IMG/VR virus record: IMGVR_UViG_3300037465_000339
Length of the DNA stretch: 44,723 nt
Direction: 5' to 3' (one strand)
From: a virus
Shown here piece by piece: positions 4,851 to 38,554 of this stretch. Each line of letters opens with the position of its first letter. Positions within the stretch are counted from its first letter, which is position 1. The notes beneath the pieces are model-generated. The model ran no database searches. It had not been told where the DNA came from and saw only the letters and a list, made by a program, of their open reading frames with translations. The position numbers were made by a program, and so were the translations under genes.

Positions 4851-5624
4851 ATGGCTACACCAAATACTTTTAGCATTTCAAATATGTTTCGCACGGCGCC
4901 GCCTACTGTTCCAGGCAGCAGTGGTGTTCCAAATAAGCAAATTAATCCTGGTGCTGATCCTGCAAATTCTCCTGATCCAAAAGGAGGAACTACTACACTT
5001 AATCCGGCTGATCCTAATTCATTAAGTGGAAGTGTTGACCCGCTAGATGCTTTCAAGGATATGTTTACAATTACGGAAGATGATCAGAAAAAGAGGGCAC
5101 CAGATCCTTTTGCTGATCCGCTTCTAAATTTTGATGTAAAGAAATTTGGTGAAGCTTCTGGAAAAATGGATTTCTTAAAAGGTGTTTCTCCAGAAGTAAT
5201 TACAAAAGCATTAGGTGGAGACGTTCAAGCTTTCTCTGCTGTAGTAAATCGCGCAGTTCAAAGTAGCTTTGTTGCTTCAGCTCAGGTATTTTCAGGTATT
5301 CTTGAGCAAGCGATTAAAAAGAATAATGGTCGGTGGGATTCTAGTCTCTCTGATCGTTTTAATAAGTTGCAACTTAGTTCATTGCGACCTGAAAATCCTG
5401 CTCTTCAACACCCTGCTGCACAACCCATGCTTGAAGCAATTAAAAGCACTATTGCTTCTAAAGATCCAACTCTTCGTCCTGATGAAGTTGCTAAGAAAGC
5501 AGAAGAATATCTTGGAACTTTTGCTGAAGCTTTCCTTAATAAAGGAAAAAGTGGAAAATCCCAAGAAGATCTTAACAACCCAGGAGAAATTGATTGGTCG
5601 GCTTTTCTTAATCTTAACAAATAG
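4851..5624 (+). CDS. Scaffolding protein (putative)
   Basis: 257 aa between portal and capsid genes. It has a Pro/Ala/Gly-rich N-terminus and a helical charged C-terminus, with an AAGGAA SD. Confidence 0.5.
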   Translation: MATPNTFSISNMFRTAPPTVPGSSGVPNKQINPGADPANSPDPKGGTTTLNPADPNSLSGSVDPLDAFKDMFTITEDDQKKRAPDPFADPLLNFDVKKFGEASGKMDFLKGVSPEVITKALGGDVQAFSAVVNRAVQSSFVASAQVFSGILEQAIKKNNGRWDSSLSDRFNKLQLSSLRPENPALQHPAAQPMLEAIKSTIASKDPTLRPDEVAKKAEEYLGTFAEAFLNKGKSGKSQEDLNNPGEIDWSAFLNLNK

Positions 5625-5632
5625 GAGATAGT

Positions 5633-6283
5633 ATGTTTGTTCGTGCACAAGTATTTTCAAATGGTTTGGCGCAGCCAGCAACTCCTGGACAGCCAGTGCT
5701 TTCGCAGCTTATTCCAGCTACGAATACCACTGCCGGTTCAGCAACGCTAACTGCTGACCAAATTCTTAGTGGGCATCTTCAGCGTTCTGGGCCTGCGGCT
5801 GGTTTTACTGATACTTGGCCTTCCGCAGATTCTATTGTCAGCGCCATGCTTGCTGCTGGTCTTGGCCCGCAAGTTGGAGATCAATTTCGATTGATCTACC
5901 AAAATACAGTAGCATTTGCAATGACGTATGCGGCAGGAACAGGTATCGTTACTGGCACCGGCACCTTAAACTGCGCAGCAAGTTCAACTCGTATTTACTT
6001 CCATACGCTCCTTGCTACTAAGCCTGGAACGATTTTGGTAGGAAATACAGTTAATTCTGGTGATACTCTCACTGGTTTTACAGCAGCTCAAATTGCTACT
6101 GTGATGCCAGGAATGGGAGTTTCTGGCACCGGTATTGCTGCCAGCTCTTACATTATTGGTGTAAATCCAGATACAGGTGTAATTACACTGAATTCTGGCG
6201 GCGTAACAGCAGATGGTAGTAATATTGCTCTTACGTTCTTCCCAAGAATTCGGCTTGATTCCATCGGTGTTCTTGCTGCTTAA
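5633..6283 (+). CDS. Hypothetical head-module protein (decoration or capsid-associated?)
   Basis: 216 aa, AGGAG SD at 5623-5627, Gly/Thr/Ala-rich. It lies directly upstream of the major capsid gene. Confidence 0.45.
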   Translation: MFVRAQVFSNGLAQPATPGQPVLSQLIPATNTTAGSATLTADQILSGHLQRSGPAAGFTDTWPSADSIVSAMLAAGLGPQVGDQFRLIYQNTVAFAMTYAAGTGIVTGTGTLNCAASSTRIYFHTLLATKPGTILVGNTVNSGDTLTGFTAAQIATVMPGMGVSGTGIAASSYIIGVNPDTGVITLNSGGVTADGSNIALTFFPRIRLDSIGVLAA

Positions 6284-33909: not shown

Positions 33910-34281
33910 TTAATCGTAAATCCACTGGCGAGCAATTTCACACAAGGCGATGAATACGGCGTCTTTGTCACGCTCTAGCTGCCCTAACTGTGCGTAGGGC
34001 ACCAGATCAGGATGAGTCTTTTTCTCTCGGTCATACGTTTCGCCGTATATCCATCCCATAGCGATGTATGCCTGCATCCAACTACCATGTAGTTCCTCCG
34101 GGGACGCTGACCGCTGCGGCCCGCATTGGCGCTCGATCACGTCGAGGAACTGAGCTTTGAAGGCTTCTTCTCGCTCGGCCCATAGCACCGGAATAACTGG
34201 CGCGCCAGCAGCAATCGCGGCAAGCCGTGCTGCATTGTAAACAAATTCTGCGCGGCGCTCGGTGAGTGTGTCGAGGGTCAC
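33910..34281 (-). CDS. RyR (ryanodine-receptor-like) domain protein
   Basis: 123 aa, GC-rich, GTG start overlapping the upstream TGA. LHGSWMQAYIAMGWIYGETYDREKKTHPDLVPYAQLGQLERDKD matches the H..W....GW.YG....K.HP.LVPY..L...E..KD signature. Confidence 0.6.
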   Translation of the reverse strand: MTLDTLTERRAEFVYNAARLAAIAAGAPVIPVLWAEREEAFKAQFLDVIERQCGPQRSASPEELHGSWMQAYIAMGWIYGETYDREKKTHPDLVPYAQLGQLERDKDAVFIALCEIARQWIYD

Positions 34282-35057
34282 TTGTCCTTTCTGAGTGCCG
34301 CGCGAAACGTCATGGCGCGCTCGTCACTACGAGGCGCTCCCCAGTGTTCGCGCGCCTGTTCGAGCGTTAGAGGGCCGCGGCAACCAGCATAATAGTGTCC
34401 ACTTGGTGATTGCAGCAGCGCCCACTCACTGCGGGCGAGTTCCGTCCAGCCGTCCGCAATGATCCGTCCCGCGCCGCGCACGCTAAGCTGCGCCAAATCG
34501 CAAATGTTAAACTGCGCCGATTTGATCACGTCGAGCTGCCCAGATTGGCGCAGTTCAAGTTGCGCCGATTTAATTACGCTAAGCTGACCAGCGTCGCGCA
34601 CAATAAGCCGCCCTTCGTCCTGCACGCTAAGCTGACCAGTGTCGCGCACTTTGAGCTGGGCCGAGTCGATCACACTGAGCTGCGCCGAATCGCGCACAAT
34701 GATCCATCCTCCGTTGAATACAATGATCTGTCCTTTATTGCGCACGCTGAGTTGTCCAGCGTCGAGCATAATAAGCCATCCGGAATCTAGCACAGTAAGC
34801 CATCCAAAACCGCGCACGTTAATTTGTCCCTCATCCTGCACATCAAGTTGCGCTGAATCGCAAATGTTGAGCTGCCCAGAATCGCAAATGTTGAGTTGTG
34901 CTGATTGACGCACAATGAGTTGCGCCAAGTCGAGCACGTCGAGAGTGCCTACCAGCCGCACGGCGCCGGTGATAGTGTGGACGCCCTCAGTGAGCGTTTG
35001 CTCGCCGCGTATTTCGCGCGTCCCATCAGCAGCAAGGGTGTATTGTATGGCGTTCAT
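34278..35057 (-). CDS. Octapeptide-repeat (predicted beta-solenoid) protein
   Basis: 259 aa, GC-rich. Residues 42-201 are 20 tandem 8-residue units with consensus x-D-(S/A)-(A/G)-Q-L-x-V. The C-terminal domain is GHYYAGCRGPLTLEQAREHW. Confidence 0.7.
   Translation of the reverse strand: MNAIQYTLAADGTREIRGEQTLTEGVHTITGAVRLVGTLDVLDLAQLIVRQSAQLNICDSGQLNICDSAQLDVQDEGQINVRGFGWLTVLDSGWLIMLDAGQLSVRNKGQIIVFNGGWIIVRDSAQLSVIDSAQLKVRDTGQLSVQDEGRLIVRDAGQLSVIKSAQLELRQSGQLDVIKSAQFNICDLAQLSVRGAGRIIADGWTELARSEWALLQSPSGHYYAGCRGPLTLEQAREHWGAPRSDERAMTFRAALRKDK
34455..34934 (-). repeat. 20 x 24-bp degenerate tandem coding repeat
   Basis: This is the DNA behind the octapeptide array. It generates spurious long ORFs in other frames and on the other strand. 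Confidence 0.85.
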
Positions 35058-36344: not shown

Positions 36345-36591
36345 AATCAGTTTGTCTCTCTTTCCGCTCTTTAAGATGGAAAGTAGAAGTTCTGCTAGAT
36401 TCATTATAAGATGAATGAATAGCCAAAGAACTAGAAGTATCACTGTAGCCTAGATCTGCTGCGGTAGCTTGAAAATTGCGATACATTCTAAGTAAACGAA
36501 TGCGCAAGTTATCATGTTCTCGGCGCGAATCGCAGCGAACAGAAATTTTATTATCTGCGATTAATCTATTGAGGATTTGGTTTGTTTGCAT
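36325..36591 (-). CDS. Hypothetical early protein
   Basis: ATG 36591 or GTG 36678. It overlaps the preceding gene either way. Confidence 0.3.
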   Translation of the reverse strand: MQTNQILNRLIADNKISVRCDSRREHDNLRIRLLRMYRNFQATAADLGYSDTSSSLAIHSSYNESSRTSTFHLKERKERQTDYELISI

Positions 36592-36805
36592 TGGGAGCGG
36601 CTCTAAAATATTTTCCTTCACTGCCGCACATAACTTCAGTGCTTCGAGCCATGAAACATTTAATCGTAATTTTTCCACCGTCCACGGGATCTAGACGGTA
36701 ACGATCAAATTGGAGATTGAGACAGATGGGATGAAAAGATTCTGCTGGGAGTAAATAGTATATGCAATTTGCACAAATTGGAATTGGTTTCAGTTGTTCA
36801 GCCAT
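36566..36805 (-). CDS. Cys-rich small protein (paralogue of 33454-33720)
   Basis: 79 aa with the pattern CANC...ICL...LDPVDGGK...ARSTEVMCGSEGKYF. Confidence 0.5.
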   Translation of the reverse strand: MAEQLKPIPICANCIYYLLPAESFHPICLNLQFDRYRLDPVDGGKITIKCFMARSTEVMCGSEGKYFRAAPNANKPNPQ

Positions 36806-37540
36806 TTTTAAGTTCCGTAAACTGGATAAATTCTAGTTGAAATTCTACATCAGGGGGAGTGATAGCTTGAGAAGAAACAATGCAACACATATCAAGAATT
36901 TTGGTGCCAATTTCGATAAGAAGAATTTGGAGAATTGCTTCCATAATAGTTCCTGGTTGTTGATAGAACTTATTCGAGCAGGAAACTGTATATCAATTTC
37001 CTGCCGACTAAGCACTAAGGGCATCTGTAGCCGAAGCTATGTAGCACGCATAGGCTTAATTACCTTGCAAGGATCTGTTTGTGCTACGGTTTAACCTGAT
37101 TTCATCACCGTAAGTTTTGTATCACATCAGGACTTTGACCAGTCATTATAAGAGCGCGCGTCAGACTGGTAATTGAGCGCGACAATATATGAAACAAAAC
37201 TGCTTCCATTTTTGATGGGTTTCACTATATACACCCACCCCAGTTTTGTTTCCTAGAGGAAGCTATTTCTAACTTCCTCAGAGAAACAAACTCGTCAGTT
37301 GTTTCTTCGGTTACTTGTTTCCGATGGCTCCTTAATTCGACTCCTATCGCGTCATAGGCGAGCAGGGAGATAGTTGAGTGCTTGCAACTATCCTAGTTAT
37401 TTTCCTCTCTAAGCACAGCCATTAGTTGGCAGAGAGGGAGCAGTTTCTATTTGGATGGTAGTAGTTGAACTTGCTCAAAAGAACTACTACTACGCTCTTA
37501 CTCCCCCGAAGGAGAGTTTCGCTGGAATTTCACCAGCTCA
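36806..37540 (-). ncRNA. Candidate large structured non-coding RNA (unclassified); alternatively an origin-like element
   Basis: 735 nt with no credible ORF in an otherwise gene-dense arm. At least 10 perfect helices of 5-12 bp and two interleaved pseudoknot-like pairings are present. Two C(UUCG)G tetraloops and two G.U-only pairs exist only on the minus strand. It is transcribed co-directionally from the promoter at 38248-38276. Confidence 0.45.
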
Positions 37541-38200
37541 TCAGAGAGCTTCTGCAAGAACTTTTTCTTCTTCTTGCAACAGAGTTTCAACCCTGTTCTT
37601 CAGGTATTCATATACATCTTCGTTATCTTCCATCGAAGAAGTATTGGATGCCCAAAGATTCAACATATCTTGAAGAATTCCAAGTGCTTTCTTATCATTG
37701 CGGCACATATAGAATTTTTTCTTGAAATGTTGAAGATGTTTCTCGATACGATCAGTATCTTTCCCCGTAACTTTCGGCATAATTGCGCGATAGTCGGCAG
37801 AGAAAGTGTCCCAATCTTCATCGGTAATGCCAAGTCCGCGCCGTTCCGCTTGCGGAATATTGGCAATCACCGACCAAGCAAGAGCAGAAACATCAATTGC
37901 TTCTGACTTGATTTCAGACTCCGGAGATTTCTCTCGGATTTGATTGACAAGATTCCTACCAGCAGCGATGACACCTTCTTTTACAAGAGTCAGAAGATAT
38001 TCAAGCTCTTTTCCACCAGCTTGGACAATCTCAAGAATTCCTTCAGCAGTAGGAACAGGAACAGAAACTTTTACCGATGGAAGTTTCTTTCCTTCTCCAA
38101 TTACAGCACCACTCGCATCTTTGATCTTCTCTTTTTTGAAGTGATAAACAGCTTCCTTCATTTCAGATTGGATCGGTTTTACTACAATGTTTTCGACCAT
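37541..38200 (-). CDS. Hypothetical protein (219 aa), first gene after the sigma70-like promoter
   Basis: GAGGAAAT SD directly upstream of ATG 38200. No motif was recognised. It is possibly related to the GC-rich 204-aa protein at 43671-44285. Confidence 0.6.
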   Translation of the reverse strand: MVENIVVKPIQSEMKEAVYHFKKEKIKDASGAVIGEGKKLPSVKVSVPVPTAEGILEIVQAGGKELEYLLTLVKEGVIAAGRNLVNQIREKSPESEIKSEAIDVSALAWSVIANIPQAERRGLGITDEDWDTFSADYRAIMPKVTGKDTDRIEKHLQHFKKKFYMCRNDKKALGILQDMLNLWASNTSSMEDNEDVYEYLKNRVETLLQEEEKVLAEAL

Positions 38201-38247
38201 ATTTCCTCTAAGATTTTGGGAGTCGCCCCGGTTTTGGGAGCAAGGGT

Positions 38248-38276
38248 ATTCTACAGGATTGTCCGGCGCCGGTCAA
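38248..38276 (-). promoter_or_regulatory. Sigma70-type promoter, TTGACC-N17-TAGAAT
   Basis: The minus strand reads cccc TTGACC ggcgccggacaatcctg TAGAAT accc. An A/T-rich tract lies upstream. The spacer contains the palindrome CCGGCGCCGG. The leader carries CTCCCAAAA twice (plus-strand TTTTGGGAG at 38214 and 38232). Confidence 0.7.
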
Positions 38277-38341
38277 GGGGATGATTTTTTAATTTTTTGT
38301 GGTCATTTTACTTCATCAATTATTCTTCAATCGAGTTTAGT

Positions 38342-38554
38342 TCAATCTTTGTCATGTTCGTATTTTCTATCAAGTTTATAGACATACCACCATCCATCCC
38401 TATAGACGGACAATTCTACAGAATTTTGAATCTCTATTGTGCCAAGTGGTTGTCCGGTATCTTCATCGAAAACGTCTCCATTTTCGAAAGGCGCCGAATC
38501 TTCTGGAAGATCTTCAATTTTCAGAGAAGAAAGGATCTTTTCGCTTTCAGTCAT
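38342..38554 (-). CDS. Hypothetical acidic early protein
   Basis: 70 aa with an 8-nt start/stop overlap with the upstream gene. Confidence 0.45.
   Translation of the reverse strand: MTESEKILSSLKIEDLPEDSAPFENGDVFDEDTGQPLGTIEIQNSVELSVYRDGWWYVYKLDRKYEHDKD

Follow-up and report, generated by a model that had tools for sequence, protein, structure and literature searches.

What does a phage make from 735 nt that hold no minus-strand open reading frame (ORF) of at least 60 codons? Positions 36806–37540 of the viral DNA IMGVR_UViG_3300037465_000339, whose whole 44,723-nt length we call the window, pose this question. An earlier note, made from the letters alone, proposed that the region is non-coding, that its minus strand is structured and functional, and that it is the largest non-coding stretch in its coding arm. 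Our analysis supports this reading, and the runner-up among such stretches measures only 141 nt. We conclude, with a probability of roughly 0.7, that the region is a modular minus-strand non-coding RNA locus whose separable modules are co-transcribed with the 219-aa gene (Table 1).

Results

Extent, strand and fold density of the region

We counted 14 perfect local helices of at least 7 bp in the region, compared with 2.4 ± 1.6 (maximum 8) in 1000 shuffles. For 36945–37560, the minimum free energy (MFE) z-score reaches −8.5 when the minus strand is folded and −5.8 for the plus strand. The proposed minus-strand polarity is backed by this better fold score, by gene orientation, and by the polarity of the hammerhead and the pseudoknot motif described below. 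In a script check, all four pseudoknot helices and eight of the ten other helices listed before lay exactly where they had been placed, whereas two had wrong 5′-arm coordinates and are found at 37369–76/37385–92 (formerly 37359–66/37375–82) and 37404–10/37431–37 (formerly 37394–400/37431–37). The single plus-strand C-A mismatch in 37500–06/37511–17 is a G·U pair on the minus strand as described, and both UUCG loops (plus-strand CGAA at 37032–35 and 37507–10) and all six copies of the heptamer GAAACAA/TTGTTTC are present. The longest ORF had been put at about 34 codons, which is too short, as the minus strand contains ORFs of 59 aa (36845–37024) and 48 aa (36798–36944).

The 219-aa gene that anchors the locus has 66 homologues and is conserved across one set of phage contigs, of which the longest measure ~43–47 kb; a metagenome scan with its protein alignment gave 10 loci, few of them new. 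The protein matches nothing in Pfam or PHROG, and a PDB fold comparison with its AF2 model (pLDDT 86) gave no match below E 0.4. The promoter proposed upstream of this gene agrees with the consensus at 10 of 12 positions, more than any other site in the area, but such sites are not enriched over shuffles, and its use as a transcription start is plausible but unproven. From the CDS down to 36800 there is no terminator-like site on the minus strand, in agreement with the earlier observation. ARAGORN and Rfam detect no tRNA in the window, and ARAGORN no tmRNA. Among 50,697 phage genomes, megablast with an 18.7-kb query returned no match, hence the phage itself is uncharacterised.

Table 1 Features of the locus, in window coordinates
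Feature	Position	Strand	Basis or detail
Sigma-70-like promoter match TTGACC-N17-TAGAAT	38248..38276	minus	consensus scan; upstream of 219-aa CDS
219-aa CDS, locus anchor gene	37541..38200	minus	ORF list; homologues
Type I hammerhead ribozyme (predicted)	37494..37549	minus	rule-based finder, covariation
Hammerhead helix I	37549-45 with 37498-94	minus	
Hammerhead core CUGAUGA	37544-38	minus	contains CDS stop UGA at 37543-41
Hammerhead helix II	37537-21	minus	
Hammerhead GAA	37520-18	minus	
Hammerhead helix III with UUCG loop	37517-00	minus	
Hammerhead H17	A37499	minus	predicted cleavage between 37499 and 37498
9-bp hairpin	37458..37490	minus	perfect inverted repeat and MFE fold; directly after 5′ end of predicted hammerhead product
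7-bp hairpin CCUCUCU/AGAGAGG	37404..37437	minus	sequence and MFE fold
8-bp hairpin GAUAGUUG/CAACUAUC	37369..37392	minus	MFE fold
Hairpin UCGG-AAACAAGUAA-CCGA	37307..37324	minus	instance of recurrent YNGG-N5-9-AGUAA-CCNR hairpin
7-bp hairpin GAAACAAC-UGACGA-GUUUGUUUC	37283..37305	minus	helix listed earlier; UGACGA loop
7-bp hairpin GAGGAAG/CUUCCUC	37256..37279	minus	MFE fold, helix check
Hairpin module: 12-bp outer stem, inner hairpin GGUGGG...CCCAUC, conserved 3′ internal loop AAAAAUGGAAG	37191..37252	minus	
Double-pseudoknot RNA motif, 102 nt	37084..37185	minus	blastn, pattern scans, covariance model R1, covariation
Motif PK1	S1 37181-77 with 37159-55, crossed with S2 37169-64 with 37144-39	minus	
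Motif linker YAAAGU	between PK1 and PK2		
Motif PK2	S3 37131-27 with 37099-95, crossed with S4 37111-07 with 37090-86	minus	
3′ hairpins	36978..37087	minus	7-bp stem 37087-81/37047-41; UUCG hairpin ~37041-37026; 8-bp hairpin 37004-36978
48-aa ORF	36798..36944	minus	ORF list

A predicted type I hammerhead ribozyme at the end of the 219-aa gene

All nucleotides that define the hammerhead core are present in the window (CUGAUGA, GAA and the pair A15.1-U16.1, here A37517-U37500). The helices follow the type I order, with helix I open and helices II and III closed by loops, and measure 5, 5 and 7–8 bp. Helices II and III had both appeared in the earlier list, and their identity as parts of a ribozyme is newly assigned here. 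Six distinct relatives (L011, L018, L037, L043, L044 and L052) also carry a hammerhead after the homologous gene. Across the seven versions the core C3-U4-G5-A6-N7-G8-A9, G12-A13-A14 and A15.1-U16.1 is invariant except that N7 is U or C, and the NUH cleavage triplet is GUA in the window, L018 and L052 and GUC in L011, L037, L043 and L044. The sequence of helix I is different in every version (for example GCUCU/AGAGC, GUCGU/ACGAC and ACCAA/UUGGU), helices II and III vary with their pairing kept, and helix III ranges from 18 to 48 nt among the relatives. All three helices covary. In the alignment of the seven hammerheads (A6), where placeholders stand for the loops of helices II and III, 13 of the 16 pairs are compensatory and 97.3% of cells are paired, compared with 24–41% in slid controls, a statistic that is partly built in as the finder itself demands pairing. 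The chance rate of the finder is 0.005–0.01 per shuffled window.

On the window, Rfam reports Hammerhead_3 only, at a sub-threshold 22.4 bits (gathering score 48.5, E 0.1), and its hammerhead models do not report the versions of the relatives at all. This shortfall is probably due to the type I topology and the long helix III. Judged from its sequence, the window hammerhead is an ordinary member of the known class. It has the core, the three-helix junction and the NUH triplet of the type I hammerheads of phages and prophages (Rfam clan CL00010), and it shares their setting between genes of a polycistronic transcript; processing of such phage transcripts by hammerheads is documented (Perreault et al. 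2011, PMC3088659). It differs from those hammerheads in scoring below the Rfam threshold, in having a CDS stop codon within the CUGAUGA core, and in preceding a long structured non-coding stretch, where the others flank a gene on both sides. A second hammerhead, considered at CUGACGAG (37298→37291), was rejected, since these letters form a hairpin loop and are not followed by GAAA, and position 8 in L011 is A.

A candidate new RNA family built of two tandem pseudoknots

The two H-type pseudoknots of the earlier note are real, and together they form a 102-nt motif that is the best-supported element of the region. Pairing holds in 95.7% of cells over 24 distinct sequences and drops to 22–36% when the partners are slid; compensatory changes occur at 16 of 21 pairs, and none of 500 shuffles scores as high. 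Helices S2 and S4 are paired in 97% and 90% of cells, although the model behind the alignment did not impose them. The covariance model R1 scores the window copy at 111 bits (E 1e-18) and finds one copy per locus. About 35 unpaired nucleotides are invariant, and loop L3 is the sole place that tolerates hairpin insertions, of 12–50 nt. The motif has no match in Rfam 15 even at E ≤ 10. Our literature searches found no account of it; a ~10,000-entry catalogue of candidate viral structured RNAs (PMC10690425) might include it. By its sequence and covariation, the motif is a candidate new phage RNA family to which no Rfam 15 family corresponds.

Several known elements were tried as an identity for the motif or parts of it and rejected. 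The helix order, S1-S2-S1′-S2′ followed by S3-S4-S3′-S4′, is not the P1-P2-P3-P3′-P1′-(P4)-P2′ of HDV-like and theta ribozymes, and no HDV-family Rfam model matches; preQ1-I and fluoride riboswitches have a different topology and likewise give no Rfam match. In an AAAGUCC resembling P4 of RNase P, the UCC is peculiar to the window, because this stretch falls in the variable helix S3. The partner bases of a box C/D kink-turn (UCUGACG and GUGAUGA) are already engaged in the covarying helices S1 and S4. A sigma-70-like promoter inside the motif (37172→37145) has a spacing that is not kept in homologues, and the covariation here is at the RNA level.

The motif occurs in tRNA arrays of large phages

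We located the motif by blastn (RP13, Xoo-sp13; Psa21, phiHQ) and by pattern scans of IMG/VR and GTDB genomes. The 24 distinct sequences, mostly phage, come from the jumbo phages RP13, Xoo-sp13, Psa21 and phiHQ, from IMG/VR contigs and from two MAG contigs. Carriers are mostly large phages, and they include unrelated ones: jumbo phages of the phiKZ-like and other kinds from Pseudomonas, Xanthomonas and Ralstonia, metagenomic phages and a group of ~45-kb phages. There was no match in 5,426 E. coli genomes and 72,556 plasmids.

On nine of the tRNA-bearing contigs the motif lies 1–21 nt from a flanking tRNA, with a spacing that varies from 4 to 21 nt upstream and from 1 to 6 nt downstream, and its strand is always that of the neighbouring tRNAs. 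Examples are tRNA-Ile/motif/tRNA-Lys (L026), tRNA-Tyr/motif/tRNA-Leu (L023) and Leu/motif/Leu (L015); tRNA-Leu accounts for many of the tRNAs that come next downstream. The motif is never itself called a tRNA by ARAGORN or the Rfam tRNA model, though it sits between called tRNAs. This proximity implies maturation by RNase P and the tRNA 3′-end enzymes. The motif also occurs outside tRNA clusters, and what follows it belongs to no consistent gene family, being tRNAs, unrelated ORFs, or nothing within 140–500 nt. A cis-regulatory riboswitch or leader is recognised by its regular place in the 5′ UTR of one gene family, and the motif does not show this pattern. Our best inference, drawn for the trans role solely from these contexts, is that the motif makes a small RNA which is stable, processed and active in trans.

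Additional hairpin modules

The hairpin module at 37191–37252 is common to the window, L037, L018 and L052. Its outer stem covaries (GAAACAAAACUG/CAGUUUUGUUUC, GAGAGCACUG/CAGUGCUCUC and GAGAACUCUG/CAGAGUUCUC), as does its inner stem across the four sequences (GGUGGG/CCCAUC, GAUGG/CCAUC and GCGUG/CACGC). The hairpin type to which 37307–37324 belongs was read directly from the sequences of L018, L037, L052, L042 and L055, and its stems covary (UCGG/CCGA, CUGG/CCAG and ACGG/CCGU). The block 37334→37290 is 82% identical to L035, whose contig was the only one returned by a pattern scan for the window-type middle block, and a similar ACUGAC(G/A)AGU hairpin loop in L035 and L011 lends weak support to the hairpin at 37283–37305. 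The position of the hairpin at 37256–37279 is held in L018, L037 and L052 by a larger and different two-stem element. An IMG/VR scan with the pattern CTGGG...CAANAATGRAAGCAG gave 29 loci, of which L018, L051, L052 and L053, already known, were genuine; the remaining matches were rejected as chance occurrences within coding sequence.

The hairpin at 37458–37490 is not shared by any relative, those at 37404–37437 and 37369–37392 have no comparative support, and the 3′ hairpins show no similarity to any relative. Comparison of homologous regions for covariation, which had been proposed as a check, supports the hammerhead and the motif; about half of the region (37493–37335 and 37083–36945) has no detected relative, and the helices there are predicted by thermodynamics only.

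Discussion

Modules, origin, genes or leader

The alternative offered before was an iteron-containing replication origin, with heptamers of the GAACAA type as iterons. We reject it and give it hardly any weight. The heptamer is indeed concentrated here, with six copies in 735 nt and 24 in the whole 44.7-kb window, and the region lies among replication genes (helicase, DNA polymerase A and nuclease). However, only the copy at 36874 is unpaired, the other five being inverted-repeat arms that make up RNA helices; the 12-bp stem is swapped in relatives for unrelated but still complementary sequences; and conservation falls on a ribozyme and on an RNA motif that covaries. Furthermore, the region is not AT-rich (GC 0.43, compared with 0.40 for the window), and the cumulative GC skew turns elsewhere, near 26–27 kb. 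It is also very improbable that short protein-coding genes, namely the 59-aa ORF, the 48-aa ORF and smaller ones, account for the region. In front of the 48-aa ORF an AGGA lies 10 nt from the ATG, and the stop of this ORF falls within the start of the 79-aa ORF (36566–36805), the two overlapping as ATGGCTGA; the 48-aa ORF may form the 3′ limit of the non-coding RNA region. Yet the small ORFs span only the 3′ quarter, neither the 48-aa nor the 59-aa ORF has a homologue in the related loci compared or a PHROG match, and the hammerhead and the motif accept indels that are not multiples of three and covary as base pairs. A single integrated ornate RNA of ~600–735 nt, with a 5′ end released by the hammerhead and the motif as one domain, would resemble GOLLD and ROOL, the large RNAs with which the region had been compared, and we consider it unlikely. 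These RNAs are likewise phage-borne, pseudoknot-rich, often beside tRNA islands and of unknown function (PMC12286853; PMC5737381). The very strong fold z-score is in keeping with one fold, as is the organisation of L018, L037 and L052, where a conserved pseudoknotted middle domain of ~200 nt and conserved 3′ modules extend from the hammerhead to the next gene. But GOLLD and ROOL are single folds of ~580–800+ nt with their own Rfam models, whereas this locus is modular, with a conserved unit of ~100 nt. Neither family, nor any other in Rfam 15, matches: the GOLLD and ROOL models give nothing at gathering score over the whole window, and nothing at E ≤ 10 on the shorter stretches 36400–38400 and L018. 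In addition, the window and the L018-type domain share short blocks only, the motif is autonomous in tRNA arrays, and close relatives combine the modules differently. The content at this locus position differs markedly among close relatives of the phage, with a hammerhead and no motif in L037, L052, L043 and L044, a motif and no hammerhead in L038, and neither element in others. This distribution favours a chain of separable modules over a single integrated 735-nt fold.

The modules could still act only in cis. On this account, which we think doubtful though it deserves serious attention, the hammerhead is just an intercistronic mRNA-processing site, and what follows is a structured 5′ leader that stabilises or controls the translation of the 48-aa, 79-aa and 117-aa ORFs, with no trans-acting product. 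The downstream RNA could indeed be merely the 5′ leader of the next genes, since no terminator separates the region from them and its 3′ end shows neither a terminator nor a second processing site. ORFs start 7 nt (L043) and ~180 nt (L044) past the hammerhead, so the ribozyme exists without a non-coding RNA cargo; in L017 a gene starts ~60 nt past the end of the motif; and hammerheads that flank genes are known in phages (PMC3088659). Against a leader, the motif in arrays has tRNAs and not mRNA close on both sides, the genes downstream of it are unrelated across loci, and its many unpaired positions that never vary point to a specific binding site or tertiary fold, not to a generic stabiliser. 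The motif might, on the other hand, be a new self-cleaving ribozyme in the processing of tRNA arrays or transcripts, like the HDV-like theta ribozymes; we would not expect this to be so. Its invariant junction nucleotides and two pseudoknots are what such a ribozyme might have, and in four lineages it has a known self-cleaving ribozyme nearby, namely a hammerhead (window, L011 and L018), a twister-P1 at 430 nt (L010; 52 bits, E 8e-9) or a twister-sister at 2.4 kb (RP13). Searching near known ribozymes has previously uncovered new classes (PMC5737381), and theta ribozymes, which sit at phage tRNA 3′ ends and cleave there (Kienbeck et al. 2024, PMC10879173), illustrate the use of small ribozymes at tRNAs by phages. 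Like the motif, they are small pseudoknotted RNAs adjoining phage tRNA genes. They differ in forming a nested HDV double pseudoknot (P1/P2/P3/P1.1) at tRNA 3′ ends, whereas the motif has two tandem H-type pseudoknots, a topology of no known ribozyme, and fits neither the HDV model nor any other Rfam ribozyme model. The association with ribozymes holds in some loci only, and the distances between motif and tRNAs on either side are variable, which means that the motif cannot define mature tRNA ends.

A possible route from transcript to small RNA

For the modular locus that we prefer, cleavage of the transcript by the hammerhead is predicted to fall 3′ of A37499, and would presumably occur in vivo. 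The upstream product would be an mRNA that keeps most of the ribozyme and ends in a 2′,3′-cyclic phosphate, and the downstream product an RNA with a 5′-OH at 37498 that runs ~550 nt to the next plausible ORF and bears lineage-specific hairpin modules together with the 102-nt motif. The ribozyme would in this way separate the upstream mRNA from the structured RNA behind it. In tRNA arrays, the tRNA-processing enzymes would release the motif as a discrete RNA of ~100–115 nt. In a phage without tRNAs, such as this one, the hammerhead and the flanking hairpins may replace tRNA-type processing and stabilisation. We suppose that the motif acts in trans and not in cis, as a stable folded small RNA that binds or decoys a protein or RNA partner.

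Compact, strongly covarying RNAs with many invariant unpaired nucleotides have often proved to be ribozymes, aptamers or specific protein decoys. Beyond the anatomy, conservation, covariation and genomic contexts described above, it is thinkable, although we rate it as a long shot, that the motif is a new phage RNA class with a sophisticated activity. One possibility is a new ribozyme, for self-cleavage or some other reaction, and another is a tRNA-shaped decoy that is matured by the tRNA machinery and directed against a host enzyme or defence; in the window the motif would lie within a composite RNA released by the hammerhead. The nearest likeness in position is to the rnaC and rnaD RNAs of T4 (species 1 and 2), which are of tRNA-like size and, as the motif does, lie among phage tRNA genes, sharing their strand and a few nt away from them. 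To our knowledge, the function of these T4 RNAs is still unknown. Homology to them was sought and rejected: cmsearch with R1 and filters off over the T4 tRNA region gave a best score of 9.2 bits (E 1.4), not at rnaC or rnaD. The motif differs from them in this lack of homology and in occurring outside tRNA clusters as well.

The stop codon in the catalytic core of the hammerhead offers a simple natural case in which translation termination and ribozyme folding may interfere with one another. If the decoy version is true, a tRNA shape built from pseudoknots would neutralise a host enzyme or a defence system that acts on tRNAs. In tRNA arrays, the motif may be a modern equivalent of T4 species 1 and 2, RNAs that still lack an explanation, and since four cultured phages carry it, experiments on its role are feasible now.

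Two conserved RNA elements in the noncoding region

The noncoding region downstream of the 219-aa gene contains two conserved RNA elements on the minus strand, a type I hammerhead ribozyme and a ~100-nt double-pseudoknot motif. The earlier note had singled out this region as the largest gap between minus-strand ORFs of at least 60 codons in the minus-strand arm, which holds (735 nt versus 141 nt for the next), and as helix-dense, which is borne out by 14 perfect local helices of at least 7 bp against 2.4 ± 1.6 (maximum 8) in 1000 shuffles. A script check reproduced all four of its pseudoknot helices and eight of its ten hairpins exactly, together with two UUCG loops and six heptamers; two 5′ arms had been given wrong coordinates and are corrected in the table. 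The proposed minus-strand polarity agrees with folding z-scores over 616 nt of −8.5 on the minus strand versus −5.8 on the plus strand. The promoter is real as a consensus match, and the minus strand indeed has no terminator-like site after the CDS. The claim that the longest minus-strand ORF has ~34 codons is wrong, as the 3′ quarter of the region holds ORFs of 59 and 48 aa.

The suggested kinship with large ornate RNAs did not survive an Rfam 15 search of the whole window: nothing reaches the gathering score, and GOLLD, ROOL, group I/II introns and riboswitches are absent from the matches. At E ≤ 10 the sole relevant match was a weak Hammerhead_3 (22.4 bits versus a gathering score of 48.5). 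ARAGORN called no tRNA and no tmRNA in the window. The phage, to which none of 50,697 GenBank phage genomes is closely related, has genes for a family A DNA polymerase, for a PD-(D/E)XK nuclease and for an SF1 helicase with a fused SprT-like domain. A 259-aa ORF made of short SGQLxVxDSAQL-type repeats has a GC content of 0.57, the rest of the window ~0.40; it may encode a repeat/beta-helix protein or be a recently acquired gene.

Coordinates of features in the window and in other loci (L numbers)
Feature	Location	Strand
Promoter	window 38276-38248	minus
219-aa CDS	window 37541-38200	minus
CDS stop codon UGA	window 37543-37541	minus
Weak Hammerhead_3 match	window 37511-37566	minus
Type I hammerhead	window 37549-37494	minus
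Hammerhead helix II	window 37521-25/37533-37	minus
Hammerhead helix III	window 37500-06/37511-17	minus
Predicted cleavage site	window, between 37499 and 37498	minus
Region in question	window 36806-37540	minus
Segment scored for folding	window 36945-37560	both
Corrected helices	window 37369-76/37385-92; 37404-10/37431-37	
Recurrent-hairpin block	window 37334-37290	minus
12-bp helix module	window 37252-37191	minus
Double-pseudoknot motif	window 37185-37084	minus
blastn match to jumbo phages	window 37085-37177	
Stretches with no relatives detected	window 37493-37335; 37083-36945	
259-aa ORF	window 34278-35057	minus
twister-P1 match	L010 11105-11179	
twister-sister match	L001 (RP13) 5431-5506	
Permuted tmRNA match	L002 (Xoo-sp13) 5458-5801	
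PSA21_57	L085 (Psa21) 1385-1627	opposite to motif
tRNA-5′-half-like sequence	L007 ~8040-7950	
Further noncoding modules	L018 11780-11930; L052 5990-6130; L038 3350-3480; L056 3260-3375	

A hammerhead ribozyme overlapping the end of the 219-aa gene

Relatives of the phage were gathered through the 219-aa protein (66 homologues, longest contigs ~43–47 kb). This protein is well conserved and its gene always lies just upstream of the ribozyme/ncRNA hotspot; a confident AF2 model (pLDDT 86) predicts an N-terminal beta-meander and a helical bundle, and Pfam, PHROG and PDB fold comparison gave no match. Comparing the DNA 3′ of this gene among relatives revealed a type I hammerhead with helix I GCUCU/AGAGC, core CUGAUGA, helix II GCUGG-UGAAAUU-CCAGC, GAA between helices II and III, helix III ACUCUCC-UUCG-GGGGAGU and cleavage triplet GUA. 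The stop codon of the CDS sits within the core, and helices II and III are two of the hairpins in the earlier note. A hammerhead also directly follows the homologous gene in L011, L018, L037, L043, L044 and L052. Across the seven versions the core is invariant, helix I differs in every one, helix II is variable yet paired, and helix III is 18 to 48 nt long. Paired cells amount to 97.3% with 13 of 16 pairs compensatory, in an alignment whose finder demands pairing and whose helix II/III loops are placeholders; the homologous position and a chance rate of 0.005–0.01 matches per shuffled window support the ribozyme independently. The hammerhead adds a new member to a known class. Processing of phage polycistronic RNAs by hammerheads is documented (PMC3088659), and the ribozyme of L043 is followed after 7 nt by the start of an ORF, so the basic role of the hammerhead is probably intercistronic cleavage.

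A tandem double-pseudoknot motif

A sensitive blastn search with the region matched ~85 nt in unannotated DNA of two jumbo phages, RP13 (Ralstonia) and Xoo-sp13 (Xanthomonas); each match lies immediately 5′ of a same-strand tRNA-Leu gene. Pattern scans of IMG/VR and GTDB genomes recovered further copies, nearly all of which also had two complementary segments left unspecified in the pattern. On the minus strand the motif reads S1 - UCAAUUR - S2 - UGAC - S1′ - variable stretch ending UUAAU - S2′ - YAAAGU - S3 - UGUGNUANAAAACUU - S4 - GAUGNAA - S3′ - NUAA - S4′, where primes mark 3′ partner strands and a hairpin insertion of 12–50 nt can stand in place of NUAA. The fold is two H-type pseudoknots in tandem, exactly the two arrangements that the earlier note had described. 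A hand-trimmed alignment of 15 sequences has 90.4% of cells paired, versus 27–35% with slid partners, and compensatory changes in 18 of 24 pairs. A covariance model (R1) in which only S1 and S3 were entered as pairs found a single copy per locus (window 111 bits, E 1e-18). The alignment that this model yielded for 24 distinct sequences has 95.7% paired cells and compensatory changes in 16 of 21 pairs, values reached by none of 500 shuffles; S2 and S4, not imposed by the model, are paired in 97% and 90% of cells.

The motif occurs in four cultured phages (RP13, Xoo-sp13, Psa21 and the phiKZ-like phiHQ); searches of 5,426 E. coli genomes and 72,556 plasmids gave no match. It matches no Rfam 15 family, and no description was found in the literature searched; on this basis it is new as a family and as a fold, barring an unnamed entry that it may have among the viral RNA candidates of a large catalogue, the supplements of which lie outside that literature. 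Its closest counterparts, the T4 species 1 and 2 RNAs, are encoded in the T4 tRNA cluster but are not homologous to the motif. The 80-aa ‘hypothetical protein’ PSA21_57 (MK552327) overlies the Psa21 motif (R1 61.9 bits) and is probably a mis-annotation.

Genomic neighbours of the motif

In nine of the tRNA-bearing contigs the motif adjoins a same-strand tRNA 1–21 nt away. Observed orders include tRNA-Ile/motif/tRNA-Lys (L026), tRNA-Tyr/motif/tRNA-Leu (L023), tRNA-Leu/motif/tRNA-Leu (L015) and tRNA-Asn/motif (L022). tRNAs are cut out of precursors by RNase P and tRNA 3′-end processing enzymes; at such distances, the motif would therefore be freed by them as a discrete RNA of ~100–115 nt. Since its distance to the tRNA varies among loci, a role in defining tRNA ends is ruled out. 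The tRNA directly 3′ is tRNA-Leu (anticodon UAA or UAG) in RP13, Xoo-sp13, L015 and L023 and tRNA-Lys in L026, and the association with a downstream tRNA-Leu may be non-random. Just 3′ of the motif in L007, L016, L024 and L029 lie tRNA-5′-half-like sequences (GCGAGTGATGGAATTGGGTAGAC..., GCGCGTATAGTTTAGTGGTAGAAT...) uncalled by ARAGORN, which may be intron-containing or split tRNAs. The tRNA region of Xoo-sp13 also holds an unannotated permuted tmRNA match (65.7 bits).

Self-cleaving ribozymes lie near the motif in several lineages: the hammerhead in the window, twister-P1 in L010 and twister-sister in RP13. The L010 match (IMGVR_UViG_3300020050_007388; 52 bits, E 8e-9, under the gathering score of 67) is 430 nt downstream of the motif and ends ~15 nt before a GIY-YIG-like homing-endonuclease ORF (MAIIYKITN...KCYIGQT). 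The RP13 match, unannotated and in the tRNA region, scores 36 bits, over the gathering score of 34.

Modularity of the locus and alternative readings

Between hammerhead and motif, only two blocks are common to the window and its relatives. One holds a hairpin with a UGACGA loop and another that follows the recurrent pattern YNGG-N5-9-AGUAA-CCNR, with stems covarying among L018, L035, L037, L042, L052 and L055. In the other block, the 12-bp helix of the earlier note surrounds an inner hairpin together with a conserved loop, AAAAAUGRAAG; the two stems covary with L018, L037 and L052. Hairpins in the two stretches with no relatives detected are thermodynamic predictions. After the 219-aa gene, hammerhead and motif occur together in the window, L011 and L018, the hammerhead without the motif in L037, L052, L043 and L044, the motif without the hammerhead in L038, and neither in L035, L036, L039, L040 and L054–57. 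Because this content differs among close relatives, we take the locus to be a modular, accessory one, not one ornate RNA; a single integrated large RNA is unlikely. L018, L037 and L052 have a larger conserved middle domain (~200 nt) with its own UGUGG/CCACA pseudoknot, plus conserved 3′ modules absent from the window. Further conserved noncoding modules in L018, L052, L038 and L056 (CUGCACAACUGA...AUCAGUGGAAAA and AUAGUGCGNCGGAGAUUCCGAGUAACCGNC) are, by sequence, absent from the window; together with the middle domain they could make up a separate, larger RNA.

A purely cis-acting structured leader is the likeliest alternative, although we consider it doubtful. The genes downstream of the motif change from locus to locus, which makes a riboswitch or leader role unlikely. 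In Psa21 and phiHQ the motif lies in an intergenic gap without a nearby tRNA, in Psa21 ahead of an RNA polymerase beta-subunit gene, which counts against specific roles. That the motif is itself a new self-cleaving ribozyme is improbable. The 59-aa and 48-aa ORFs, for which no homologue was found in related genomes, are very unlikely to account for the region, and an iteron-type origin, the alternative that the earlier note had attached to the region of the six heptamers, is hardly credible.

Proposed mechanism

The anatomy, strand, conservation and covariation of the locus are direct observations. We propose that a transcript from the upstream promoter would continue through the CDS into the region, where the hammerhead would cut it after A37499. 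The mRNA 3′ end would stay capped by the ribozyme fold, and a structured RNA with a 5′-OH would be freed. A ribosome terminating at the CDS stop would sit over the core of the hammerhead and its helix II, so that cleavage may, speculatively, be coupled to translation. The functional cargo of the freed RNA would be the double-pseudoknot module, which tRNA-array phages have as well; acting in trans, this stable, folded RNA would bind or decoy some partner. In kind, the motif belongs with the phage RNAs, small and large, that are found alongside tRNA islands (T4 rnaC and rnaD, GOLLD, ROOL).
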